A stretch of DNA of 64,000 bases, from positions 34,566 to 98,565 of the forward strand of contig JAFYLQ010000001.1 in assembly GCA_017550105.1 (NCBI GenBank). Reading direction: 5' to 3'. The number at the start of each line of letters is the position of its first letter. The stretch's first letter is position 1. A model generated the notes under the pieces. The model saw only the letters and a program-made list of their open reading frames with translations. It was not told where the DNA came from and made no database searches. The DNA comes from Clostridia bacterium (GTDB taxonomy: Bacteria; Bacillota; Clostridia; Oscillospirales; Acutalibacteraceae). Shown in pieces: positions 1 to 44,027 of this stretch. Made by a program: the position numbers and the translations under genes.

Positions 1-95
1 AACTTCACTTTTATTTTCAAATAAAAACTTCACTATGCTTTAGCAAAACTTCACTTTTTGTGCAACAAAAAACTTCACTTTCTTTCGGGCAGGGC
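1..95. repeat. Word-hairpin half-array: AACTTCACT x4 (1-9, 26-34, 47-55, 71-79) separated by short hairpins; truncated by the window edge
   Basis: Read directly from the sequence. Positions 48-79 recur at 49136-49167 with 1 mismatch. Confidence 0.7.
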
Positions 96-176: not shown

Positions 177-2141
177 TTACGTCAGTTCAAACTGACCTGT
201 ATATAATTTATAGTATTTGCCCTGTTGCTCAATAAGGGTGTCGTGGTCGCCTTTTTCAATAATTTCGCCGTTTTCAAGTACCATAATGGCGTTTGAATTG
301 CGGACGGTTGAAAGTCTGTGGGCGATAACGAAAACTGTTTTGCCCTCCATAAGCGTATCCATACCCTTTTCGATAAGTCTTTCGGTACGGGTGTCGATGG
401 AGCTTGTTGCCTCGTCAAGAATAAGCACGGGCGGGTCGGCAACTGCCGCACGGGCAATGGCAAGTAACTGTCTTTGACCCTGTGAAAGGTTGGTGCCGTC
501 ACCTGTGAGCATTGTGTTATAGCCGTCGGGAAGTCGGGAAATAAAGCTATGAGCGTTGGCAATTTTTGCCGCCTTCACCACGTCCTCGTGGGTAGCGTCA
601 AGCTTACCGTAGCGGATATTTTCCTCAACAGTACCTGTGAAAAGGTGGGTATCCTGTAAAACCATTGCAAGGGAACGACGCAAATCGTCCTTTTTGATTT
701 TTTTGACGTTTATGCCGTCGTAGGTGATTTTACCCTCCTGAACGTCATAAAATCTGTTTATAAGGTTTGTGATTGTGGTTTTACCCGCACCGGTTGAGCC
801 AACGAAGGCGATTTTCTGACCGGGCTTTGCATAAAGGGAGACGTTCTTAAGAACGGTCTTTTTGCCGTCGTATGAGAAGGTAACGTCGTGGAATCTTACG
901 TCACCCTTAAGGAGCGTATAGGTAACGCTACCGTCTGCTGAGTGGGGGTGCTTCCAAGCCCACGTGCCCGTTCTTTCCTCTGCTTCGGTGATGTTGCCGT
1001 CTTCGTCAACTCTTGCATAAACAAGTGTAACGTAGCCGTCGTCCTCCTCGGGTGTGGAGTCGATTACGTCGAAGATTCTTTCGGCACCTGCAAGGGCGGC
1101 AAGAACACTGTTCATTTGCTGTGAAACCTGTGTAATGGGGTTTGAGAACTGACGTGTGTACTGAAGGAATGAGGCTAACGAGCCGATGGTGAGTGCACCC
1201 TGAAGACCGCCTAAGAATATACCTGCAGCGCCGTTCTGATATGCGCCTAAATCAAGAATAATAAAGGCGCCTAAAGCCGCAGAAAGAGCGAAGTTGATGT
1301 AAGAAATGTTACCCATAATGGGCATAAGAATACTTGCGAAGGTGTGTGCTTTGGTGGCGGCAACACGGTAGTTTTCGTTTATTTTAACAAAGTCATTTTT
1401 GGTTTCCTCCTCACGGCAGAAAACCTTTACAACCTTAAGACCCTCAATAAGCTCCTCGATGTAGCCGTTTACGCTACCAACCTCCATCTGCTGCTTGCGG
1501 AAGTACTTTGAGCTTCTGCCACCTATGAATTTGATTATCATAAGCATAATGAAAAGCATACCGATTATAAGGCAGGTGAGGGCGGGGCTGATGTAGAGCA
1601 TCATAAGGAAAATGCCCACCGCCATAACGCCCGAGGAAATAACCTGAATAAGACCGTTGCTGATTGCTTCACGTATGGTATCAACGTCGTTTGTGAAGCG
1701 GCTCATTAATTCACCGTGGGTGTGAGTGTCAAAATATTTAATGGGTAAATCCTGCAAATGGTCAAAAAGGTCACGTCTTAAAAGGTTGAGTGTCTTCTGT
1801 GAAACGTTGAGCATAAGACGTGCGTGAAGGTACTGCGCCAAGGCTCCTGCACCGTATAAAACGGCAAGGATTACAAGATATTTTATAACGTTTGTTAAGT
1901 CCGTTGAGCCTGTTTCAACCAAAAGACCGATTTCGTTTATGATGGGTGTTAAAAAGTACGTTCCTGCAATGTTTGCAACGGAGGAAAACAGTACTAAAAA
2001 TACAACAACCGCTAACAAGCCCTTGCTTTTTGCTACGTATGAAAGCAGTCTGCCCAATGTTTTGGCGGGGTTCTTGGGTTTTTCAAATTTCATTCTGGCA
2101 CCGGGGCCACCCTGTGGCTGTGCCTTTACTTTTTTAGCCAT
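177..2141 (-). CDS. ABC transporter, fused permease/ATP-binding subunit (heterodimeric multidrug-type exporter)
   Basis: 654 aa. N-terminal six-TM domain, Walker A GSTGAGKTT, signature LSQGQRQ, Walker B LILDEATS. Confidence 0.9.
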   Translation of the reverse strand: MAKKVKAQPQGGPGARMKFEKPKNPAKTLGRLLSYVAKSKGLLAVVVFLVLFSSVANIAGTYFLTPIINEIGLLVETGSTDLTNVIKYLVILAVLYGAGALAQYLHARLMLNVSQKTLNLLRRDLFDHLQDLPIKYFDTHTHGELMSRFTNDVDTIREAISNGLIQVISSGVMAVGIFLMMLYISPALTCLIIGMLFIMLMIIKFIGGRSSKYFRKQQMEVGSVNGYIEELIEGLKVVKVFCREEETKNDFVKINENYRVAATKAHTFASILMPIMGNISYINFALSAALGAFIILDLGAYQNGAAGIFLGGLQGALTIGSLASFLQYTRQFSNPITQVSQQMNSVLAALAGAERIFDVIDSTPEEDDGYVTLVYARVDEDGNITEAEERTGTWAWKHPHSADGSVTYTLLKGDVRFHDVTFSYDGKKTVLKNVSLYAKPGQKIAFVGSTGAGKTTITNLINRFYDVQEGKITYDGINVKKIKKDDLRRSLAMVLQDTHLFTGTVEENIRYGKLDATHEDVVKAAKIANAHSFISRLPDGYNTMLTGDGTNLSQGQRQLLAIARAAVADPPVLILDEATSSIDTRTERLIEKGMDTLMEGKTVFVIAHRLSTVRNSNAIMVLENGEIIEKGDHDTLIEQQGKYYKLYTGQFELT

Positions 2142-18396: not shown

Positions 18397-18450
18397 AGTT
18401 GGTCCTCCGATAGAGATTTTTTGTGTCTTTATATCTAAAAGAGTGATGTT

Positions 18451-18519
18451 TAAAATCACTTGCGAAGCAAACATCACTGCTTGCAACATCACTACGAAGT
18501 AACATCACTTGACGTAAGG
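18451..18519. repeat. 69-bp perfect direct repeat, left copy (forward-word half-array AACATCACT)
   Basis: Identical to 18988..19056. Contains the GCGAAGC mini-hairpin. Confidence 0.9.
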
Positions 18520-18533
18520 GAAACATCACAATT

Positions 18534-18887
18534 TTAATTATTCTTCTTAGCAGTGGTTATGCTTTTTACGAGCATACGATGAATAACTCCGCAATCCTGC
18601 AATATAGAATCTTTAGTTTTCTCATCAATACAACTAACTCCAAACAGAATATCAATCCAATATTCCGTTTCTACACACTCTTTAAGTGCAATTTGCATTT
18701 TGTTTATAAAATCGGCTTTACTGGCGCCATAATTAGCTTCATATATATTGGCACCAATAGATGTTGCGCTCTTGGTTATCTGATTTATTAAAACTCCACG
18801 TCCTTTTCGTGAGTCTATGTTATCGCACATTTCTATCACATCAATTGCAAATTTTCTTGATCTCGTCCTGAGTTCAGATTCTTTCAT
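18534..18887 (-). CDS. Four-helix-bundle protein (PF05635 / TIGR02436; 23S rRNA intervening-sequence protein / Avd-like family)
   Basis: 117 aa with the family pattern SIGANIYEA...ADFINKMQIALKECVETEYW. RBS AAGGAG. Confidence 0.85.
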   Translation of the reverse strand: MKESELRTRSRKFAIDVIEMCDNIDSRKGRGVLINQITKSATSIGANIYEANYGASKADFINKMQIALKECVETEYWIDILFGVSCIDEKTKDSILQDCGVIHRMLVKSITTAKKNN

Positions 18888-18899
18888 AATTACACTCCT

Positions 18900-19056
18900 T
18901 TGTGATGTTGTGCTGAAGCACAGTGAAGTTATGCTAAGGCATAGTGATGTTTTTATCCACGGATAAAAGTGATGTTAAGTTTGCCCTTAAAATCACTTGC
19001 GAAGCAAACATCACTGCTTGCAACATCACTACGAAGTAACATCACTTGACGTAAGG
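18900..19056. repeat. Mirrored word-hairpin array: 4 reverse words (AGTGATGTT-like), then 4 forward words (AACATCACT-like), each separated by a mini-hairpin
   Basis: Reverse words at 18901, 18922, 18943 and 18968; forward words at 18989, 19007, 19022 and 19038. Includes the right copy of the 69-bp repeat (18988..19056). Confidence 0.85.
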
Positions 19057-19065
19057 CAAACTTAG

Positions 19066-20823
19066 TTATATTCTATACATCGTATACATATTAGCATAAA
19101 TGCCGTTTTTCTGTGTCAATTCCTCGTGGGTGCCGCTTTCGGCAATGCCGTCCTTGGTAATTACAAGAATTTTATCTGCATTTTTAATAGTCGTAAGTCT
19201 GTGGGCAACGGTGATGGTTGTTCTGCCCTGTGCAAGGCGTTCAAGGGATTGCTGAACAAGGAACTCGCTTTCGTTATCAAGGGCGCTTGTAGCCTCGTCA
19301 AGTATAAGTATTTTCGGGTTTTTAAGGAATACTCTTGCAATACTGATTCGTTGCTTCTGACCGCCCGAAAGCTTAACACCTCGTTCGCCGACGTAGGTGT
19401 CAAAGCCGTTGGGAAGATTATCAATAAAATCCTCTGCACCTGCAAGACGAGCCGCCTGACGGATTTCCTCTTCAGTAGCACCGGGCTTACCGTATTCAAT
19501 ATTTTCCCTTACCGTGCCCGAGAAAAGGTAAACGTCCTGTTGCACAACGCCGATATTTTCACGAAGTGATTTAAGCGTTACGTCACGTATATCGGTGCCG
19601 TCAATTTTTATGCTTCCTTCGGTGATTTCATAAAAACGGGGAATAAGGTTGCAAATTGTGGTTTTACCGCCACCCGAGGGTCCCACAAGGGCAAAGCTTT
19701 CGCCGCTACCGATGTTAAGATTTATGCGGTTTAAAATTTCCTCGGTATCATCAGAATATTTAAAGGTTACGTTGTCAAAATCAATTCTGCCCTCGGTAAC
19801 CTCAAGGGGAACGGCATTTTTCTTGTCCTTAATATCGGGGTCGATATCCATAATATCCGCAAAACGCTCAATACCCGTCATACCACGCTGGAACTGTTCA
19901 ACAAAGTCCACAAGCTTTCTGATTGCGGTAAGGAGCATTGCCGCATACATAAGGTATGCAACGTAGTCGGGGGCAGAAATTCTTTCGTTAAGAATGAAAA
20001 ATGCACCGATTACTGCCACAACAATGTACATTATGCCCTCAAAAACTCTGTTTACAGAGCTGTATGAGCCCATAAATTTGTACATTACCGCTTTAATATC
20101 GAGGAACTTTTCGTTTCCGTGCTTGAATTTATTTTCCTCTATATTTTCATTGGCAAAGGATTTAACAACCCTTACACCCAGAAGGCTGTCTTCAATCTGT
20201 GCGTTTAATTCACCAAGTGTCACACGGCTTTCGCGCATACTGTCCTTCATTCGTGTTTTAAAATATTTAAGACACACAGCCATTAAGGGGATAACTGCGA
20301 ACATTATAAGCGTAAGGAAAATATCCATTCTTGCAAGGATTATGAAGGATACAACAATTTTAACTCCCGCTATAAAGAATTCCTCAGGGCAATGGTGTGC
20401 AAACTCCGTAACGTCAAAAAGGTCACTTGTAAAGCGGGACATTATTGTGCCCACCTTGGTTTCGTCGTAGTAGGAGTAGGGTAGCTTGTGAAGATGCTCG
20501 AACATATCACGGCGCATATCCGTTTCCATCTTGGTGCCCATAATGTGACCCACCGACGCCATATAATAGTTGGCAATAGCATCAATTATACGTAAGGCGA
20601 TGTAAATACCGCCCATTGTCAGTATGGTTCTTGCAGTAAGCAAAGCGATGTTTTCAATCGCCGTGTCCGTAATGTGGCGGACAAAAAGAGGCAAAATCAA
20701 TTCGCATATTGTGGTTAATGCCGCACAGAAAAGGTCAAGAAACAACGTTTTAACGTGGGGCTTATAGTAGGGTAAAAATCGCTTAATTAACTTAGCGTTG
20801 CCTGATTTGTTTTTGTTTTTCAT
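19066..20823 (-). CDS. ABC transporter, fused permease/ATP-binding protein (MsbA-like exporter)
   Basis: 585 aa. Walker A GPSGGGKTT, signature LSGGQKQR, Walker B LILDEATS. Confidence 0.9.
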   Translation of the reverse strand: MKNKNKSGNAKLIKRFLPYYKPHVKTLFLDLFCAALTTICELILPLFVRHITDTAIENIALLTARTILTMGGIYIALRIIDAIANYYMASVGHIMGTKMETDMRRDMFEHLHKLPYSYYDETKVGTIMSRFTSDLFDVTEFAHHCPEEFFIAGVKIVVSFIILARMDIFLTLIMFAVIPLMAVCLKYFKTRMKDSMRESRVTLGELNAQIEDSLLGVRVVKSFANENIEENKFKHGNEKFLDIKAVMYKFMGSYSSVNRVFEGIMYIVVAVIGAFFILNERISAPDYVAYLMYAAMLLTAIRKLVDFVEQFQRGMTGIERFADIMDIDPDIKDKKNAVPLEVTEGRIDFDNVTFKYSDDTEEILNRINLNIGSGESFALVGPSGGGKTTICNLIPRFYEITEGSIKIDGTDIRDVTLKSLRENIGVVQQDVYLFSGTVRENIEYGKPGATEEEIRQAARLAGAEDFIDNLPNGFDTYVGERGVKLSGGQKQRISIARVFLKNPKILILDEATSALDNESEFLVQQSLERLAQGRTTITVAHRLTTIKNADKILVITKDGIAESGTHEELTQKNGIYANMYTMYRI

Positions 20824-22795: not shown

Positions 22796-22810
22796 TAGTT
22801 ATCACCTCTG

Positions 22811-22997
22811 AAATCTTATTTTGCGAAAGCAAAATATATCGAGCCGACAGGTATATCGAGTCGCTTGCGACATATCGAACGCGTAAGCGTATATCGACAG
22901 TCGATATGTTTATCTTTCGATAAACTCGATATATTGCAGAGCAATTCGATATATTTTCACTTCGTTCAAATTCGATATGTTGTGCTTTGCACAACGA
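22811..22997. repeat. Mirrored word-hairpin array: 4 forward ATATCGA words, then 5 reverse TCGATAT-like words, separated by GC-closed mini-hairpins
   Basis: Forward words at 22836, 22853, 22872 and 22891; reverse words at 22901, 22917, 22927, 22946 and 22972. Confidence 0.85.
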
Positions 22998-23009
22998 GTA
23001 TGTAAACAA

Positions 23010-23357
23010 TTAGTTGTTGTTTTTTGCCGTAGTGATTGATGCAATAAGTCGACGTCTTATTGAGCCCGCAAACTTTTTTGTTTCAAAATACTCTTTTTCA
23101 GAAATGGCCTTTTTTCTGAAAATCAACTCAATCCAGTACTCTGTTTCAGCAACCTCTTTCAAAGCGATTTCGAGTTTGTTTATGAAATCGGCACGGCTTT
23201 GTGCGTATTTTGCTTCGTGAATATTGGCGCCGATAGAAGATGAGGAGCGGATAAGTTGATTTTTGTACACAGAGCAACCTTGTATGTTTTCGCACATATC
23301 AGAAATCGTAATGGCGAAAGATATAGAATCCTCACGTAATATGTTTTTATTACCCAT
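23010..23357 (-). CDS. Four-helix-bundle protein (PF05635 / TIGR02436 family), paralogue of 18534..18887
   Basis: 115 aa with SIGANIHEA...ADFINKLEIALKEVAETEYW. RBS AAGGAG. Confidence 0.85.
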   Translation of the reverse strand: MGNKNILREDSISFAITISDMCENIQGCSVYKNQLIRSSSSIGANIHEAKYAQSRADFINKLEIALKEVAETEYWIELIFRKKAISEKEYFETKKFAGSIRRRLIASITTAKNNN

Positions 23358-23372
23358 ATTGTTTCTCCTTAT

Positions 23373-23440
23373 AAATCTTATTTTGCGAAAGCAAAATATA
23401 TCGAGCCGACAGGTATATCGACAGTCGATATGTTTATCTT
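23373..23440. repeat. Short copy of the ATATCGA array
   Basis: 23373..23421 is identical to 22811..22859, and 23422..23440 is identical to 22898..22916. This is the left array with 38 bp deleted between two words. Confidence 0.9.
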
Positions 23441-23554
23441 AAGTATACACTTGCAAAGATAATTATTCAATGTATTTTAAATGTTTCTTGCATTAACAGA
23501 GGAAAGCGTGTAAAATTATAAAAAAGCAAATATCAATAAAGAGGGAATACTTTT

Positions 23555-33974: not shown

Positions 33975-34165
33975 TTAGAGTGAGAGAAGTATACCTTCCT
34001 CACTCCTATCAGCAAGTATTTCGACTCGGTGCATATTTTTCGCCTTCTCAAACAAGTTGTTCAATGGCTGTTTCTCCGTTTTGCGGTATACGGATAGAAA
34101 AATACGTTTTTGCACCTCACGGCGACGGGCTCGTACAGGATTTTCACCTGTTTCCTTGAACTGAT
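33975..34165 (-). promoter_or_regulatory. Cobalamin (B12) riboswitch
   Basis: The minus strand reads GGAAACAGGTGAAAATCCTGTACGAGCCCG (conserved core), followed by a B12-box-like AGAAACAGCCATTG and a downstream hairpin GAGTGAGGAAG / CTTCTCTCACTC. The boundaries are approximate. Confidence 0.75.
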
Positions 34166-34171
34166 AAGGAA

Positions 34172-34199
34172 ATTATACCACAAAATACTGTTTTTGCAA
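34172..34199 (-). promoter_or_regulatory. Promoter TTGCAA-16 nt-TGGTATAAT (extended -10) driving the riboswitch operon
   Basis: Read on the minus strand immediately upstream of the riboswitch. Confidence 0.6.
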
Positions 34200-37274: not shown

Positions 37275-40200
37275 TTAAAACACACACTGAACAGGAGTGT
37301 CGTCAATTGGCAAATCAGAAGAAACTAGTGATTGATTGTACTCTTCGGCATCCCACACCATCAAATATAAATTACCATCTGGTGCAGCTAAATATAAATC
37401 TTTTTGATTATTCTTAGCAACAACCCAATCACCAAATATTATACCACCATTATCTATTGTATCAGAAAACTCATTGCCTATATGTCCATTACAGTTCGGG
37501 TGTGAATGAACCATTGCTACAACAGATGGATCAGATAAAATTAAACTCATATCAACGGTTGCATGCTCGCCTGTAACAGTAGTTGTTAGCCCATATGAAT
37601 TTGTATCAGGATTGTATGTAATACCTTGCCCATATTCCAAATTAGTGTCTTGAGTTCGTTCATTTAAATTAATACCTGATGCGATTGCCGCTTCTGTTAT
37701 AGTTTCATAAGGGTGTGTTTTTATAAAGAAACGATTAATTTTTATTCTAATTTCACTTATTTTACCAGAAACCCAATTTTTAAAATCTTGCCATTTCCCG
37801 CAACCACTCGGGTCACTAAACATAATAGGATTATTACTGCAATATGCAAACATATTATAACCAATAATATCCCCATTGCCGTTTAAGGTACCATCCGCAT
37901 TAATAAACCTACCAATTTCAGGATTGTAATATCTTGATTGCAGGTAATAAAGCCCCGTATCAGCGTCATAATAGTAGCTTCTGTAACGGATTGGGTTGTC
38001 GTTACCGATGGTGTAATCAGAGTTCACGATATTAACCGTACAATTACCCCAGGCATCGTAAGTGTAAGATGCGAGCAAGTCACCTGCAGCAGAGTAAATG
38101 CCTAAAACGTCACCCTGCATATTGGTTGTAACGTAATAATAGTGGTTGGTTGAGCCTTTTATGTAACGAATGGCTGTAAGCTTACTGTAGCTGTCATAGA
38201 AGAAATACATTTCTGTATCAACTTCGTCTGCAGCGTTGTAGGTACACTGGTATGTGAGCAAGCCGCCCAGATACTGATACATTACCTTACCGTTGTATGT
38301 ATAGCCACCGTTCTCGTTACTTACATACATATTCTTGCGGCTTCTTAAGCCATCGGAATCATAGTAATATGTATTACGAATGAGGTCATTTTCATAACGG
38401 TAAAGCTCTCTGCCCGTCCACAAAAGGTCATTGCCGAGGTATTTTTCAGGGTTACCAATAGCATCGTAGGATATTTTTTCAGAATCCTCATATGTGCCGT
38501 TACCGTTCAGGTCAACACCCAACAGTATATTGTTCCAACCGGTTCCGTCGTCATCGGTTGTTTTGTCATTTTCTTGACCGTAATCGTAGGTTACGGTTTT
38601 TGTTGCAGTAGAAAGTGTTGTGGTTGAATACGGATATATGGTAACAGACTCAATATTACCGAGGTCGTCATACGACCATACCTTTGTCTCGTTGGTAGAC
38701 TTGTTGTTTTCCCTTGTTAATTGGTACAAATCGTCATATTCGTATGAACGGTAAGCACCGGCATTACTAACCGTTTTAAAGCCGGCATCATCAGGATTAC
38801 TTGATGTACGCTGACCTTTTTTGATAGAGGTTATATTACCAACAGAATCGTAATAATAGGTGTAGGTATCGTTATTAATAAACTCCGTGCTGAGCTGAGT
38901 TGTGCGGTAAAGCTCGCTACCACCCGTATTACGGTCGGACATCTTGTAGGTATAGTTAACGTATATTGGCGTACCTAATGAAAGCTTATATTGATTAAGA
39001 CGGTTAAGACTGTCGTAATCATATGTTACCTTTCTGTTAGACGCTAAGCTGTACTGAGTGGGCAGATTGTCTTTTGCATAATTTGCAGAAGCAGCATTAC
39101 CCGAAAGAGCCGAATAACTGTACTCCTGAGTTATTGTTCTGCCACCGATGTTATTAATCAGCTTAGTAAGGTTGTTTGCTTTGTCATAAACGTTTTCGGT
39201 AAATGAAACGGGTGTTCCCGCATTATCACCGGCATACATAGTAACGTTCTGACGAATAGCCCTGCCTAATGAATCGTAAGCATAGGTGTATTTATAGCCC
39301 GTACCGGAATCTGTGTGAGCAAGTAACGTACCGGAAGCATCATAACTCCATTTGTAAGTTGTGGTGCTGTCGCCCGATTTGACTTTAATTGAAGTCAAAC
39401 CCAAATTATTGTATGTGTAGTTAATTGTATCACCGTTACCGTATCTTGTCAAATACAATACACCGTTGTTATCCTTATAATAATTTGTAGAAAGGGGTTG
39501 AGTACCGACATAGGTTGACGTTGTGTTGCCGTATTCGTCAAACTTAAAGCTATATGTTTCACCATAGGATTCAGAACCGAACAAAATACTCGACATTCTG
39601 TTGCCGCCATATTTACCGGTCAAGGTTTGGTCGTAAGTGTATGTTACCTTTGACGAGCCTGTGGATACAGATTCAAGTCGTGTATAATCGTTTTTTTCGT
39701 TTCCGTCTTCATCCTTGTATGTGTAATATTTGTTGGTTGTTGTTACACCGTTTGCATCCGTTGTAGTTTTCGGTGCACCCGTAGCCCAGTTATATGTATA
39801 ATGGGTTGCATTACCATGTTCATCATAATAATACTTTAAATATGCACCGTCATTTATACCGTAAGCCTCACCGCCCGTATGATACTCCTTGTTGGTTCTT
39901 ATAGCCAGGGTTGCATCGTCGTGCTTCAATGTATTACGAAGTTCGCTAACAGAAACCGTACCATTGGAATTGTATGCATTAGAAGTTGTAACACCTTTTG
40001 CTGAGGTTGTATGAGTAAGATTATGCTTACTGTCATAATTCATCTTTGTAGTATTCCCCAGAGTATCGGTATATGAGGTCATATTGTCATTGTCGTCATA
40101 CTCGGCATTGGCTTTTTGCTCTGAGTTTGCGGTTGCTTTAAGTAAATTGCCCTTTTCATCGTAGGTGTAGGTCTGAGAGGGCTCTTTAACAAGCATTAAG

Positions 40201-43200
40201 TGGTCAAAGTAAACGTAGTTTACCTGACGGCAATACCTGGGCACAATCTGGAAATACTTGGGTGTGTAAGTGCAACCCTCGTCGGGCTTGCTATACTCAA
40301 GTGAAAAGGGTGTTGAAGCATACTGCCACGAGGTTATGGTAGTGTTAAAGGTTGCCGAGTCCTTGTATTGCGAGACCTCGGTAACGTTTTTGTTTTCGTC
40401 AGTACGGTCATAGGTAACCTTAACGGCAATTTCGAAAAGGGCGATATTTTTGGTATCATCATCCGTTCCGCTTGTGTGGAAGGTGCTGTTTACAGGGTAG
40501 CCCCTACCCCAACCGCTGACAATATACGTATCGTCGGCTTTACCGTCAACATATATTTTTTGACTGTAGCCCTTTGCAACGTCCGGGTCACCGGTTATAC
40601 GCACGGACTGAGTGCCGTTTGCCTTGGCAACGGTGGTAATACCGTTGGTTACGGTGCTGTTTGAAGACGTAGTGTAGCTTGTGTTAATAGCGGACCAGCC
40701 TGTGGGCAAGCCACCCGATGATTTTTCAAAGCTACTGTTTTCAAGAATATTAAATGAGTTAGCCGCATTGCCCGATTCAAGCTGAATACAATCAAAATAT
40801 GCCGTGCCGTTCACGTTACGCAAGCAAAGATATATGAAAGTATGGGATTCGTCAGCAGGTATGGTTACGGTTGCGGTTAATCTTCGCCAGCCGTTATCTA
40901 TGCCTGTGTCGGTAGCTTCACATATAGCCTCGGAGCGAACGGGGTTATCTGCTACACCGTCAGTACCTACGCTCGTTATCTGCAAATGTGCGCCCGTGTA
41001 GTTATTTTCGGCAGTTTTGGTTACGCTACCCACTTTGACGTAGGCTGAAAGTGTATACGTACTGCCGTTTGTTAAGCCGTCAACCCGTTGGCGGTAATAC
41101 ACGTTGCCGATACCCGTAAGACCTGAATTGGTAAGCTTAAGGGATTTTGTACCCATATATTTTTCGGTTGCAACGCTCGGGGATGAAGCAGAGTGTGTCC
41201 AACCCGCGGTGCTTTCGGCATTACCGCCCGTAAGCAGGTTCACAACGCTTTTGCCCATTGAGCCCGTGGAGCTGACACGGTTCTTACTGCCGAGTGAGGC
41301 TGACTCGCCCGAGGAGTCTGTGAATTCATAGGAGCCTGCACCCACAAAGGAGCCGTTGCCGTATTTAATCTGTTGTGCTACGGTTCTGCCCGTGTTATCA
41401 AACTGCAGCGTGGTGATAATATCGTCGTCACCGTATGCTTCGTTGGTTTCGTTATGAATACCGTCAATACCCGCAGAGCGTATAACGGTAGTATTGTACT
41501 CGGTTCTGTCGAAGGTCACAATCTGACCCGCTTTAAAAGAACCGTTTGCATTTGTGCCAAATTCCTTGACCTTTTTAACCCGTCTGCCCGTAGCCTTGGA
41601 GGTATAGTCAAAGTTGAGTCCGTAGCCGTCGTTGGAAAGAACGTAGTTTATCAAGCCCTCGGCTGACTCCTCATATTCGGGTGTACTGCTATTCTCACCC
41701 TCATAAACTATTTTTGTAACGGTTTCGTCGTAATATTTAACACTACGCAAAAATCCGCCCGTGGTTGTAAAGTAAATTGTTCTGCCTGCATTGTCCTTAA
41801 TTGTTTCTATGTAATCAAGCTCAACGCCCTTATCCTTGTAATAGGTAAAGGTGAATTTATGACCCGAGCCGTCGGTTATATATGCAATTCGGGTTTTAGC
41901 CTGTAAACCAATTTCTGTGTTCTCACTTTTATAGGCTATATGTATATTATTGCCGTTGGCATCGTAGATATTGCATAAATTACCCTCAGAATTAAAGCAT
42001 TTTTGGGTATCGCTTTTATCCGTAATCTTATATGTACAATCATTGTGATTAAGGGTTAACGTTAAACCTAACCCATCCTCATCCTTGTACACGGTGGTTT
42101 CCTTGCCGTCCTTATCCTTTTCCTTAACCTTTTGGATGTAATGCTCGGTTCCGTCACCGTCGGTGTACACGTAGGGATAATTCTCTTTACTCTCGCCCGT
42201 TAAGCCGTATTTATCCGAGGGTAAGACTGTTTCCTGTATGCTGAGTCTGAAGCCCTTACCGGGTGTGGTACGTGACGAGTTGTTTTTGCCTACGGTTAAT
42301 CTTTCGTTAGCACAGTAGTTATTGTACACCGCCGAAAGTGCAAGGGGCATAAGCTCACCCGAGCTTGAGAGTATGGGCAGACTGTAAACAAGATTACCCG
42401 TGTAATCGTTAACATATGCCGTACCTGCGGTATTAACTCCGTAGGTTGAATAACTCCAATAATCCTCTACGCCCTTATTGTTGCGGTAGGTAACAACAAT
42501 TGTAGGATACACAACCGAGGTTATGTTATATTCTGCGGATATAATCTGGGCTCTGCCCACCTTGGATTCGTCATAGCCTTTAATAACCACACCGTAGTTA
42601 TTACCGTTTTCAAACCAGTTTTTTGCGGCACGGGTAATGTCAAATTGATAATAATCACCGCAATCGTAGGTAAGCTCTGCATAATCGAGTGCAGTGCTTG
42701 CAAAAGTCGGTTGGTCGTTCCACGTTGGTGACAGGGTTGTGTTGTTCCAATCCTCGGTTACTGTGTGAACAGATATGAAGCGTTTTTCGCTGCCTGCATC
42801 AACACTCATCTGATAAATCTGCAATCTTGCGTTCTGAATCACACAGCAATCGTCGGGCAATTCAGGTAGATTAAATTTAACGTAAGTGCGTGTTTTACCC
42901 AAGGTGCTATGACCCGCATACAAATAATAGTCATAGGGGTAGCTTGAATTGGGCGAGTTGTTATCAACATAGCAGTCAATTGTATTCTGTCGGTTGATAT
43001 CAAGCAATATTGTAGGGTCAATAACAACCGGATATGCTCTGCTTTTATCGTTAAGCCAGTTTTTATCTGCCGTTACGGTTAAGGTGTATTTGTCACCGTC
43101 GGGTGTCAATTCCATTGAAACCGAATCGGAATACGCACCGTTTGAGTCCATCATATATGGCGGTGTAATTACCGACTGTGCCTTGGTATGCTCACTGTCG

Positions 43201-44027
43201 GTATACAATACGATTGAGCCGTCCGCTTCTTTCTCAGGATAAAGACCGCCTAAATCCATAGTGAATTCAAAAATGTTTTTATCCTGCTTTTTTTCTAAAA
43301 CTATACTTTCTTTGATTACGTTGCTTGAAATTTCATATTCAAGGTTAACATCTTCAAATACATTCTCATACTTAACTGCACCCTTACGGTTATCTACACT
43401 AAGGGCGTTATCTTTTGTGATTTCAGCTTCATTTGTGCTTTTAAGTGAATATGTATCGGCTGTATCACCACTCACAATCTCAGCACTTACAAGCTCTGTT
43501 TCCTTTGCAATATCACCGGATGCATTTTTTAACCCTTTCTGGGATGCCTTGGGTGAAAATGCGATTGTTGTATCGGCAATATCAATGCTGATTTCGTTGT
43601 TGCCGTCCTTTGATATCTCAGAGGGAAACTTAACAGGCATATCCGATGAAGCCGGAGAAAACACCGAATCTGTTGAAAAAAGCTTTCCTGTAGTATTTTC
43701 TTCAATTGTAAAATCGTATTCTACCCATTTACCGTTCTTTTGATAATGCACGGGTGATGAATATTCGGCCGCAATATATGAACCGTCGGACTGACGGAAA
43801 TACTTGGTATATTCATCACGCAAATCGGTAATTTCATTTAATACCTCAACCTCATCTGCCGTATTCTCTGCATTTTCGGAGGTATTGGTTGTTTGGCTAT
43901 TTTCGGTCTTTTCCGTTCCCTGCAGTTCTGCTGCTATGGCAGGATTTGCCGACGAAAACACGCTAAGAAACATTACAAAGCTGAGGAATACCGATAATAT
44001 TTTTATTATTCGTTTCATTTTTGCCAC
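37275..44027 (-). CDS. Secreted RHS/YD-repeat polymorphic toxin
   Basis: 2250 aa. Signal peptide, then a DNRLRE-like domain, two CBM-like modules and many YD repeats. The RHS core ends YYLQSRYYNPEIGRFINAD...YCSNNPIMFSDPSG, followed by a 175-aa variable C-terminal domain. Confidence 0.9.
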   Translation of the reverse strand: MAKMKRIIKILSVFLSFVMFLSVFSSANPAIAAELQGTEKTENSQTTNTSENAENTADEVEVLNEITDLRDEYTKYFRQSDGSYIAAEYSSPVHYQKNGKWVEYDFTIEENTTGKLFSTDSVFSPASSDMPVKFPSEISKDGNNEISIDIADTTIAFSPKASQKGLKNASGDIAKETELVSAEIVSGDTADTYSLKSTNEAEITKDNALSVDNRKGAVKYENVFEDVNLEYEISSNVIKESIVLEKKQDKNIFEFTMDLGGLYPEKEADGSIVLYTDSEHTKAQSVITPPYMMDSNGAYSDSVSMELTPDGDKYTLTVTADKNWLNDKSRAYPVVIDPTILLDINRQNTIDCYVDNNSPNSSYPYDYYLYAGHSTLGKTRTYVKFNLPELPDDCCVIQNARLQIYQMSVDAGSEKRFISVHTVTEDWNNTTLSPTWNDQPTFASTALDYAELTYDCGDYYQFDITRAAKNWFENGNNYGVVIKGYDESKVGRAQIISAEYNITSVVYPTIVVTYRNNKGVEDYWSYSTYGVNTAGTAYVNDYTGNLVYSLPILSSSGELMPLALSAVYNNYCANERLTVGKNNSSRTTPGKGFRLSIQETVLPSDKYGLTGESKENYPYVYTDGDGTEHYIQKVKEKDKDGKETTVYKDEDGLGLTLTLNHNDCTYKITDKSDTQKCFNSEGNLCNIYDANGNNIHIAYKSENTEIGLQAKTRIAYITDGSGHKFTFTYYKDKGVELDYIETIKDNAGRTIYFTTTGGFLRSVKYYDETVTKIVYEGENSSTPEYEESAEGLINYVLSNDGYGLNFDYTSKATGRRVKKVKEFGTNANGSFKAGQIVTFDRTEYNTTVIRSAGIDGIHNETNEAYGDDDIITTLQFDNTGRTVAQQIKYGNGSFVGAGSYEFTDSSGESASLGSKNRVSSTGSMGKSVVNLLTGGNAESTAGWTHSASSPSVATEKYMGTKSLKLTNSGLTGIGNVYYRQRVDGLTNGSTYTLSAYVKVGSVTKTAENNYTGAHLQITSVGTDGVADNPVRSEAICEATDTGIDNGWRRLTATVTIPADESHTFIYLCLRNVNGTAYFDCIQLESGNAANSFNILENSSFEKSSGGLPTGWSAINTSYTTSSNSTVTNGITTVAKANGTQSVRITGDPDVAKGYSQKIYVDGKADDTYIVSGWGRGYPVNSTFHTSGTDDDTKNIALFEIAVKVTYDRTDENKNVTEVSQYKDSATFNTTITSWQYASTPFSLEYSKPDEGCTYTPKYFQIVPRYCRQVNYVYFDHLMLVKEPSQTYTYDEKGNLLKATANSEQKANAEYDDNDNMTSYTDTLGNTTKMNYDSKHNLTHTTSAKGVTTSNAYNSNGTVSVSELRNTLKHDDATLAIRTNKEYHTGGEAYGINDGAYLKYYYDEHGNATHYTYNWATGAPKTTTDANGVTTTNKYYTYKDEDGNEKNDYTRLESVSTGSSKVTYTYDQTLTGKYGGNRMSSILFGSESYGETYSFKFDEYGNTTSTYVGTQPLSTNYYKDNNGVLYLTRYGNGDTINYTYNNLGLTSIKVKSGDSTTTYKWSYDASGTLLAHTDSGTGYKYTYAYDSLGRAIRQNVTMYAGDNAGTPVSFTENVYDKANNLTKLINNIGGRTITQEYSYSALSGNAASANYAKDNLPTQYSLASNRKVTYDYDSLNRLNQYKLSLGTPIYVNYTYKMSDRNTGGSELYRTTQLSTEFINNDTYTYYYDSVGNITSIKKGQRTSSNPDDAGFKTVSNAGAYRSYEYDDLYQLTRENNKSTNETKVWSYDDLGNIESVTIYPYSTTTLSTATKTVTYDYGQENDKTTDDDGTGWNNILLGVDLNGNGTYEDSEKISYDAIGNPEKYLGNDLLWTGRELYRYENDLIRNTYYYDSDGLRSRKNMYVSNENGGYTYNGKVMYQYLGGLLTYQCTYNAADEVDTEMYFFYDSYSKLTAIRYIKGSTNHYYYVTTNMQGDVLGIYSAAGDLLASYTYDAWGNCTVNIVNSDYTIGNDNPIRYRSYYYDADTGLYYLQSRYYNPEIGRFINADGTLNGNGDIIGYNMFAYCSNNPIMFSDPSGCGKWQDFKNWVSGKISEIRIKINRFFIKTHPYETITEAAIASGINLNERTQDTNLEYGQGITYNPDTNSYGLTTTVTGEHATVDMSLILSDPSVVAMVHSHPNCNGHIGNEFSDTIDNGGIIFGDWVVAKNNQKDLYLAAPDGNLYLMVWDAEEYNQSLVSSDLPIDDTPVQCVF

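Follow-up and report, generated by a model that had tools for sequence, protein, structure and literature searches.

A 64,000-nucleotide (nt) stretch of a Clostridia bacterium (assembly GCA_017550105.1, contig JAFYLQ010000001.1, positions 34,566-98,565 of the forward strand; 'the window', with positions counted from its first letter) contains a small inserted cassette, element 1, between an ABC exporter gene and deoD. Element 1 represents a cassette type found widely among gut Clostridia (Oscillospiraceae, Acutalibacteraceae and relatives). It encodes a four-helix-bundle (4HB) protein beside complementary arrays of short repeated words, and its parts belong to known kinds, namely the intervening sequence (IVS)/S23p/Avd protein family and the Gut-1 RNA. 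We propose, at evenly balanced confidence, that element 1 is a mobile cassette of the IVS type, in which an encoded Avd-like pentamer would recognize the structured RNA arrays. The composite of Gut-1, a complementary block and a PF05635 gene with clade-specific words appears undescribed in the literature searched, which gave no description of word arrays, of a PF05635-Gut-1 link or of the complementary block. An initial interpretation made from the letters alone (the sequence-only reading) was aware of no described element with this architecture; this appears to hold for the composite but not for its parts, since Gut-1, of which the repeat unit is a divergent copy, and the IVS/S23p/Avd gene family are both known.

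Organization of element 1

We name the blocks in the sense of the gene (minus strand): S is the block with short spacers and H the block with longer hairpin spacers. The first two bases of the conserved left end AACTAAGTTTGCC are the last two bases of the TAA stop codon of the ABC exporter gene, and the element starts at 19067 (Table 1). Both neighbors, the exporter gene upstream and deoD downstream, are those recognized in the sequence-only reading. The linker between S and H is kept in the family as GGC(A/G)AACTT, and its A/G changes together with the T/C of the left end. About 45 nt lie between the lone H word behind the second S-block and the ribosome binding site (RBS) with deoD.

The two S-blocks (18450-18524 and 18987-19061) form a non-coding direct repeat of 75 nt with 74/75 identical positions, the sole difference being a G/C on the plus strand. 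The repeat finder gives a perfect stretch of 70 nt, and the 69-bp perfect repeats reported initially lie inside this 75-nt repeat. The forward and reverse words were likewise found at the positions and in the orientations given for them. With at most one mismatch, AACATCACT occurs 32 times in the window compared to 15.2 +/- 4.1 times in shuffled sequences (0/100 shuffles reach 32), and 14 of these 32 words sit in 18442-19046. The 10-nt inverted repeat AACATCACAA (18522-18531)/TTGTGATGTT (18900-18909), described as a bracket of the RBS and coding sequence (CDS), indeed flanks both, while a second perfect 10-nt inverted repeat (18976-18985/19055-19064), which encloses the right repeat copy, had been overlooked.

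The claim that adjacent words are separated by mini-hairpins is exact for the H-block (TTTATCCACGGATAAA, ATGCTAAGGCAT and GTGCTGAAGCAC), which, when folded on its own, gives just these three hairpins and leaves the words unpaired. In the S-block, the hairpins of the window copy are marginal: ACUUCGU and UGCUUCGCA can form hairpins of 2-3 bp, and GCAAGC (GCTTGC on the plus strand) is unable to form one. A scan of the minus strand for promoters and terminators gave no site in the non-coding arrays of the cassette, the only matches (one promoter-like, one terminator-like) being inside the 4HB CDS. The arrays contain no promoter-like site, so the cassette presumably relies on transcription of the operon.

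Table 1. Coordinates of the features of elements 1, 2 and 3 in the window.
Feature	Position	Strand	Remarks
Element 1, whole cassette, ~659 nt	18409..19067	-	present here, absent from sister strains; right junction near 18409 approximate
Conserved left end AACTAAGTTTGCC	19055..19067	-	array start in 70/80 homologous loci
S-block copy 1 (direct repeat copy 1)	18987..19061	-	words AGTGATGTT x3 + AGTGATTTT, spacers 6-9 nt; Gut-1-like
Linker GGCAAACTTA between S and H	18976..18985	-	10-nt perfect inverted repeat with left end
H-block, four antisense words AACATCACT, AACATCACT, AACTTCACT, AACATCACA	18901..18976	-	three mini-hairpins of 16, 12 and 12 nt
RBS AAGGAG of 4HB gene	18895..18900	-	directly after final H word; same arrangement in 29-sequence alignment
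4HB gene, 117 aa, PF05635/TIGR02436, Avd-like fold	18534..18887	-	profile matches and AlphaFold2 (AF2) model
Extra sense word TGTGATGTT just past stop codon	18522..18530	-	perfect pairing with final H word (10-nt bracket)
S-block copy 2 (direct repeat copy 2)	18450..18524	-	75 nt, 99% identical; starts deoD leader
Lone H-type word AACATCACT after S-block copy 2	18442..18450	-	word scan
Rest of deoD leader, RBS GGAGG at 18404-18408	18397..18441	-	read from sequence
Element 3, H-block of gene-less S-H array, word AACTTCACT	1..81	+	AACTTCACT x4 with hairpin spacers (k-mer scan); cut by window start
Paralogue 2, 4HB, 115 aa	23010..23357	-	52% identical to element 1 protein; TIGR02436 80.3 bits
Element 2 array	22814..22995	-	[CT]ATATCGA[ACG] x4, hairpin spacers of 11-17 nt, followed by complementary words x4, spacers of 7-10 nt
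Partial array copy, leader of paralogue 2	23373..23438	-	holds 49-nt perfect direct repeat of 22814-22862

Insertion polymorphism at two sites

We compared alleles at two sites, using L numbers for the loci and contigs. Site 1 is the ABC exporter/deoD junction, with L002 as the filled allele and L003 and L004, from other samples, as empty alleles. The latter two encode an identical deoD protein and are without the ~659 nt, both repeat copies included: only 11 nt (GAGGTACCACT) separate the exporter stop codon TGA from the deoD ATG. The left junction of element 1 falls after AGAATAT. An empty site had been anticipated with exactly one repeat copy; it exists, but no single-repeat allele was seen at site 1 in the sister contigs (L003, L004). 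Since the empty site carries no repeat copy, the repeats are neither a simple target duplication nor a single attachment (att) site. No target-site duplication is visible when the filled (L002) and empty (L003, L004) junctions are compared, the right junction being only approximate.

Site 2, between the NUDIX and His_Phos genes, holds element 2 (22814-23438) in the window and shows three alleles among near-identical strains. The window type (22796-23554) has 759 nt. A second allele of 328 nt (L131-L134, L136) has no 4HB gene and contains tandem heptamers (ATTACGC x3 and ATTACGA x2) directly before the His_Phos RBS; it matches no Rfam family, and its word resembles that of the phage-borne element L128. 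The third allele (L135) is array-free and measures 162 nt. As these alleles differ from that of the window, site 2 has hosted different array types. Its promoter is situated upstream of the arrays. Further look-ups with the His_Phos gene returned contigs whose break lies 45 nt upstream of it, which is consistent with a repeat and does not inform on the allele. The presence and absence of elements at strain level at both sites is an insertion polymorphism. For the solo array of element 3, the search for an empty site via the exporter gene at 177..2141 found only one context.

A cassette family with a link to Gut-1

A genome scan with the element 1 protein yielded 80 loci in different species of gut Clostridia, mainly Oscillospiraceae, Acutalibacteraceae and unclassified metagenome-assembled genomes, with 61-73% protein identity. 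In total, this protein has 3173 homologues at E <= 1e-5, many of them on very short contigs. A metagenome scan with paralogue 2, the second 4HB protein of the window, gave 36 loci, and word families and flanking repeats were counted over 118 loci. The word array is shared by 78/80 homologous loci according to the k-mer count, and the remaining two show the array on inspection. The family layout reads AACTAAGTTTGCC, hairpin, [AGTGAAGTT-hairpin] x3, AGTG.., GGCAAACTT, [AACTTCACT-hairpin] x3, AACTTCACC, AGGAG, ATG. In 53/80 loci this unit lies directly downstream of an RNA uracil-5-methyltransferase gene (PF05958), the others having varied contexts.

Most relatives have both blocks upstream of the 4HB gene, and the bracketing of the open reading frame (ORF) seen in the window is thus no general rule. 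Four loci (L011, L013, L059, L137) have the order H-gene-S only. Direct repeats of 50-200 nt (93-100% identical) surround the 4HB gene in about 16-18 of the 118 loci and in several word clades. The loci L016, L039, L085 and L143 follow the order S-H-gene-S-H-host gene, in which the S-H array precedes unrelated host genes and supplies their RBS. The second S-block of the window, its lone H word and the decayed remainder resemble a worn-down form of this arrangement, the lone word at 18442..18450 probably being the leftover of a second, decayed H-block, by comparison with these intact tandem loci.

The S-block of the window (19003-19068, minus strand) scores 20.6 bits (E = 0.75) against the Rfam model of Gut-1 (RF01706), of which the gathering cut-off is 50; this was the only hit when the region was scanned permissively with Rfam. 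Gut-1 was described in 2010 as a probable non-coding RNA from human gut sequences only (Weinberg et al., 2010, PMC2864571). Homologous S-blocks pass the threshold: those of L016 reach 53.0 and 50.9 bits, while L126 (72.9 and 69.4 bits) and L127 (62.6 bits) use the classical Gut-1 word GUGAAAU. The window S-block aligns column by column with the loci that pass, and the window copy is therefore a divergent relative of Gut-1 and not a formal member. All these above-threshold copies (L016, L126, L127) are directly upstream of, and in the same sense as, a PF05635 gene, with an H-block between them in L126 and L127.

Some loci show additional traits. The 50 nt upstream of the left end AACTAAGTTTGCC were scanned in 70 loci, and in 43% of them a perfect hairpin with 8 bp or more reaches to within 3 nt of that end, compared to 1.8% of control positions; in methyltransferase-linked loci the 5' arm of this hairpin is the coding end of the methyltransferase gene. 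In L029, L020 and L027 the upstream gene contributes its 3' end to the repeats. L027 (1026-1861) also has a 4HB copy that is truncated after codon 36, where ...VNQ passes directly into ACTAAGTTTGCC, the left end of another S-H-4HB unit, which is complete; the arrays of the two units differ at 2/185 nt (~1%) and the coding remnants at ~16%. The L137 locus has a gene with a Ribonuclease_3 domain, and its upstream gene resembles those of L011 and L013. The commonest conserved neighbors (PF05958 methyltransferase, Ribonuclease_3) are both RNA-maturation genes, which could be a coincidence or a functional link to ribosomal RNA (rRNA). Genes for HNH endonucleases (PF01844, PF13395) are found directly downstream of the 4HB gene in L088 (1889-2999), and a conserved downstream ORF of unknown family is common to L049, L073, L078 and L088. 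In L110, L111, L115, L117, L120 and L127 the arrays and the 4HB gene are located downstream of one or more tRNA genes.

RNA structure and conservation of the words

The spacers differ in sequence between species while their hairpin potential is kept. Among distinct spacers, 86-90% are closed by at least two terminal base pairs (13-17% when shuffled) and 55-61% by at least three (4% when shuffled). RNAalifold finds compensatory changes in 18/46 predicted pairs, and the hairpins of the relatives are clear and covarying. In the H-block hairpins, tandem G.A/A.G mismatches with Watson-Crick pairs on either side occur 39 times and tandem T.C/C.T mismatches not once, and there are 40 G.U juxtapositions compared to 14 A.C juxtapositions. 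This excess of G.A and G.U is specific to the gene-sense strand, and the gene-sense RNA is therefore structured. The strand-specific mismatches, and an RBS that invariably closes the array, point to a structure formed in RNA.

Two alternative folds had been suggested for the window, and both are better than shuffled controls. Cofolding of the first S-block with H gains -22.0 kcal/mol (shuffles -8.3 +/- 3.1), and pairing of H with the second S-block around the ORF gains -18.5 kcal/mol (shuffles -7.8 +/- 3.2), each 3-4 standard deviations beyond the shuffles. The leader alone reaches -54.5 kcal/mol (z = -3.8). The alignment consensus predicts the pairs S1:H4, S2:H2 and S3:H1 in addition to the hairpins. 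A third state is possible, in which the left end would pair with the linker over 10 bp and close the S-block with its words unpaired, as in the Gut-1 model.

The words themselves are about 97% invariant (S, 196 exact versus 7 variants; H, 267 exact versus 6 variants). Their invariance where synonymous sites are saturated, and their identity within arrays, go beyond what complementarity needs and therefore imply a sequence-specific reader. We distinguish an A-type word (AACATCACT) from a T-type counterpart with another central base (AGUGA(U/A)GUU in S; AACA/UUCACU in H). Residues I15, G54 and Q65 are common to the three A-type proteins and nearly absent from 75 T-type proteins. Five unseen Q65 proteins were looked up, of which four have A-type arrays and one (L137) fails; the outcome would fit co-evolution of protein and word and shared descent equally well.

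The 4HB protein

The element 1 ORF matches PF05635 with 82.1 bits (cut-off 33.8) and TIGR02436 with 94.3 bits (cut-off 24), which bears out its early assignment as an IVS-protein/Avd-like gene. The AF2 model (pLDDT 93.6) consists of four helices, with Foldseek TM-scores of 0.83-0.94 to 2RLD, 0.83-0.90 to 2GSC, 0.81-0.89 to Avd (4DWL) and 0.78-0.83 to chain E of 8UB7. The profile matches 2RLD with E = 1.4e-32; the 2RLD entry has five chains and, by homology, the element 1 protein is probably a pentamer. Over the family coding sequences from 80 species, pN is 0.11 and pS is 0.74, giving a dN/dS of ~0.04: the protein is under strong purifying selection, and the synonymous sites are saturated.

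To our knowledge, no function has been assigned since 1993 to the PF05635 proteins that rRNA intervening sequences encode. In the ribonucleoprotein (RNP) 8UB7 of a diversity-generating retroelement (DGR), five Avd protomers all grip an 11-bp stem-loop with a UNCG loop, with flipped-out bases sitting in the crevices between protomers, and stem-loops of ~9 bp with tetraloops follow the template repeat in 207/278 DGRs (preprint 10.1101/2023.10.23.563531). From this grip of the Avd protomers in 8UB7 it follows that members of the fold bind short structured RNAs encoded beside their own gene.

Word families and rRNA intervening sequences

At least 18 word families occur among the 118 loci; their S and H words are always mutually complementary and follow the protein clades. 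Close relatives of paralogue 2 have ATATCGA arrays and relatives at 55-58% identity have ATATCGC, while CAAATCA, CAATTCA, AATGATG, ACATCAT, CAAATGA, ATTTACC and AATTTCG are found in other metagenome relatives. The most distant relatives carry spacer-free tandem heptamers that bracket the ORF, with ATTAGGA x11 and TCCTAAT x10 in L121 and similar arrays in L119, L123, L124 and the phage locus L128.

One relative (L116, 42% identical) is inserted in a genuine 23S rRNA gene (831 bits, large-subunit model) and is flanked by inverted heptamer words of the CAATTAA type. This substantiates the analogy with rRNA intervening sequences drawn in the sequence-only reading, and L116 and the graded word arrays form a continuous series that connects the window element with the classical IVS. 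The idea that the words mimic 23S rRNA was rejected, as the rRNA part of L116 contains no word match. The window itself has no rRNA match at Rfam gathering thresholds; element 1 is not in a 23S rRNA gene. Two other origins were considered and rejected. Phage origin was discounted since just four relatives occur in 2.9 million viral contigs, and clustered regularly interspaced short palindromic repeats (CRISPR) because of the unit size (9-nt words with 6-17-nt spacers).

Other arrays in the window

Element 2 at site 2 uses another word, TATATCGA, and its array surrounds paralogue 2; one genome thus contains two word types, each beside its own 4HB paralogue. The block order in element 2 is H, then S, with the gene after them (H-S-gene). 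Read in gene sense, its array runs through a hairpin and TAAGATTT into the RBS of the His_Phos gene. An almost perfect palindrome is formed at the junction CATATCGAC-T-GTCGATATAC.

Element 3 (window 1-81) is continued in the same contig (L006, 6060-6238), where a complete gene-less array homologous to 18900-19064 is found. This solo array lies between a convergent nadC-type gene and the ABC exporter gene 177..2141 and directly follows a terminator hairpin. Identity between elements 1 and 3 is 79%, compared to 78% for the best matches in other species, which is uninformative on spread within the genome. Outside the arrays, a cobalamin riboswitch (RF00174, 56.8 bits, 33994-34180, minus strand) is the sole Rfam family above threshold in the window, and a very long ORF of 2250 aa is located at 37275-44027 (minus strand).

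Proposed mechanism and rival explanations

We envisage that a block of ~659 nt was inserted into an 11-nt operon junction and would be transcribed with the operon. The arrays would act in the gene-sense RNA, in which the spacer hairpins may display the words. The H-block could pair with the upstream S-block, forming a ladder in the 5' leader, or with the downstream one, enclosing the ORF as in an rRNA IVS. The words would be read sequence-specifically by the cassette's own protein, leading to autoregulation or to the assembly of an RNP, and the alternative S:H pairings may serve regulation or insulate the host transcript. Since word types differ by clade and coexist in one genome, and the 4HB protein is the sole encoded product, this protein should be the reader.

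Several points weigh against this proposal. The binding of words by the protein is purely inferential, and Alayyoubi and coworkers reportedly found in 2013 that bAvd binds nucleic acid without sequence specificity. The covariation of protein and word could reflect shared descent of a gene and its flank, with one out of five predictions failing (L137). A- and T-type words are mixed in arrays (window, L141, L144), so the central base is not strictly read. The number of words per array (3-11) does not simply match a pentamer. On the side of the RNA, a single fixed fold is hard to fit because the block order varies (S-H-gene, H-gene-S, and H-S-gene in element 2), and the 10-bp pairing of left end and linker and the S:H ladder are mutually exclusive. 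Only 2/13 single-word variants, a small number for such a comparison, keep pairing, the others lacking S/H covariation; the comparative data therefore neither fix the partner of each word nor tell which pairing state is used.

The arrays might instead only pair, as in a purely RNA-structural IVS in which RNase III cuts the stem, frees the ORF piece and insulates the host transcript, the protein being unrelated or idle. We consider this unlikely, even if several observations speak for it: the relative in the 23S rRNA gene (L116) with its inverted heptamer words, the long perfect inverted arrays that bracket the ORF in distant relatives (L121, L119, L123, L128), and the energetically favorable bracket of H and the second S-block in the window. 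In the Coxiella IVS, RNase III cleaves the stem, and the ORF is believed not to be expressed (PMC4990558). Pairing alone, however, leaves the identity of the words within an array and their invariance across species unexplained, the strong purifying selection on the protein does not suit an idle product, and most close relatives have no downstream block, hence no ORF in a loop. Moreover, 9-bp helices broken by hairpins are poor substrates for classical RNase III.

An element that moves at the DNA level would use the arrays as multi-site ends or attachment sites (as in Mu, Tn7, En/Spm or integron attC), with the 4HB protein as an accessory, a recombinase supplied in trans and hairpins formed in single-stranded DNA. 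The polymorphism at two sites, with three alleles at one of them, agrees with this, as do the sharply conserved left end AACTAAGTTTGCC with its frequent perfect hairpin, the direct repeats around the gene in ~15% of loci, the truncated or nested copy in L027, whose joint falls exactly on the left end, the gene-less solo arrays, and the many homologues on very short contigs, as expected of repeats. We nevertheless judge it rather improbable as a full account. No target-site duplication is visible at the filled/empty junction, and no recombinase, transposase or reverse transcriptase is encoded among the neighboring genes. The mismatch spectrum of the gene-sense strand and the RBS at the array end fit RNA better, and the 53/80 loci at one syntenic position suggest long vertical inheritance. 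The two explanations are not exclusive: mobility is shown, and DNA-level movement is a candidate mechanism compatible with an RNA cassette read by its own protein. An insertion sequence or miniature inverted-repeat transposable element (MITE) was rejected, since terminal inverted repeats with target-site duplication are absent from the L002 versus L003/L004 junctions, of which the right one is only approximate.

It is very improbable that the arrays are a locally duplicated host regulatory leader of deoD (attenuator- or riboswitch-like) in which the small ORF is carried as a passenger. The second repeat copy does lie in the deoD 5' leader, and the S-H arrays of the four tandem loci (L016, L039, L085, L143) do precede host genes and supply their RBS. 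However, the sister strains with the identical deoD protein are leaderless and keep only the 11-nt junction, the array precedes many unrelated genes and tracks the 4HB gene rather than deoD, and no Rfam cis-regulatory family matches; a host leader was therefore rejected. A DGR remnant with the direct repeats as template and variable repeats is hardly credible at all. The Avd fold and the nearby repeat pair recall a DGR, but the neighboring genes (ABC exporter, deoD, deoB, cdd, pdp, GFO_IDH oxidoreductase, His_Phos, NUDIX) include no reverse transcriptase, the layout of 78/80 loci has no variable protein gene, and the repeats are non-coding and 74/75 identical, their single G/C difference showing no adenine-specific pattern. 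This candidate was rejected as well.

The reading of the words by the cassette's own pentamer may extend further. PF05635 proteins in general might be sequence-specific readers of RNA words, each clade with its own 7-9-nt word, and with their flanking inverted arrays make up one widespread class of mobile RNP cassettes in rRNA, operon junctions and leaders, of which Gut-1, the 23S IVS and the Avd-RNA contact would be facets; we put this forward tentatively, as a doubtful though possible generalization.

Significance

Gut-1 has been an orphan RNA with no gene association or function since 2010, and bona fide copies are now found directly upstream of PF05635 genes. The question of PF05635 function becomes testable, with a pentamer that would read repeated words beside its own gene, and two paralogues with two words in one genome are a natural specificity control. 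As a general rule, PF05635 genes carry inverted arrays of a clade-specific word. The cassettes reside within operons and 5' leaders of ordinary genes of abundant gut bacteria, may affect the expression of host genes and cause metagenome assemblies to break. If the protein does read the words, solo arrays before host genes would put those genes under its control in trans.

Comparison with known systems

The intervening sequences of rRNA (Leptospira, Coxiella; S23p/PF05635 ORF) share the protein family with element 1, and in both cases an ORF lies between inverted sequences able to form a stem, L116 being a genuine case with heptamer words. Classical IVS sites in 23S rRNA are helix 25 or helix 45, whereas element 1 is located between protein-coding genes of an operon. 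Its flanks consist of arrays of 9-nt words with hairpin spacers instead of a simple 28-bp stem, both arrays are usually upstream of the gene in its family, and its protein is clearly under purifying selection, whereas the Coxiella ORF is believed not to be expressed. The rRNA IVS is regarded as a selfish element of unknown origin (PMC4990558).

Avd has the same fold as the element 1 protein, with only 12-13% sequence identity. The short tetraloop stem-loop that is gripped by the Avd pentamer and encoded next to its own gene has a counterpart in the short hairpins with UUCG/GNRA-like loops beside the 4HB gene. Element 1 differs from a DGR in having many repeated words in place of a single stem-loop and neither a reverse transcriptase nor template and variable repeats, and RNA binding by its protein is putative.

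Like integron cassettes and MITEs, element 1 combines a small promoter-less ORF with an adjacent imperfect palindrome, and its family shows tandem site-ORF-site-gene arrangements, gene-less solo sites and strain-level presence and absence. Unlike integron cassettes, it has no integrase or attI among its neighboring genes, and its palindrome is made of repeated conserved words, while attC sites keep structure and not sequence. MITE-type terminal inverted repeats and a target-site duplication are not visible at the filled/empty junction.

Gut-1 was published (PMC2864571) without a gene association, complementary block or mobility. Its word is GUGAAAU and that of the window is AGUGAUGUU, and the first hairpin is degraded in the window copy. 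The layout nevertheless resembles that of Gut-1: the window S-block has four conserved words with three short spacers between them, two of which can form hairpins, while the relatives have clear hairpins.

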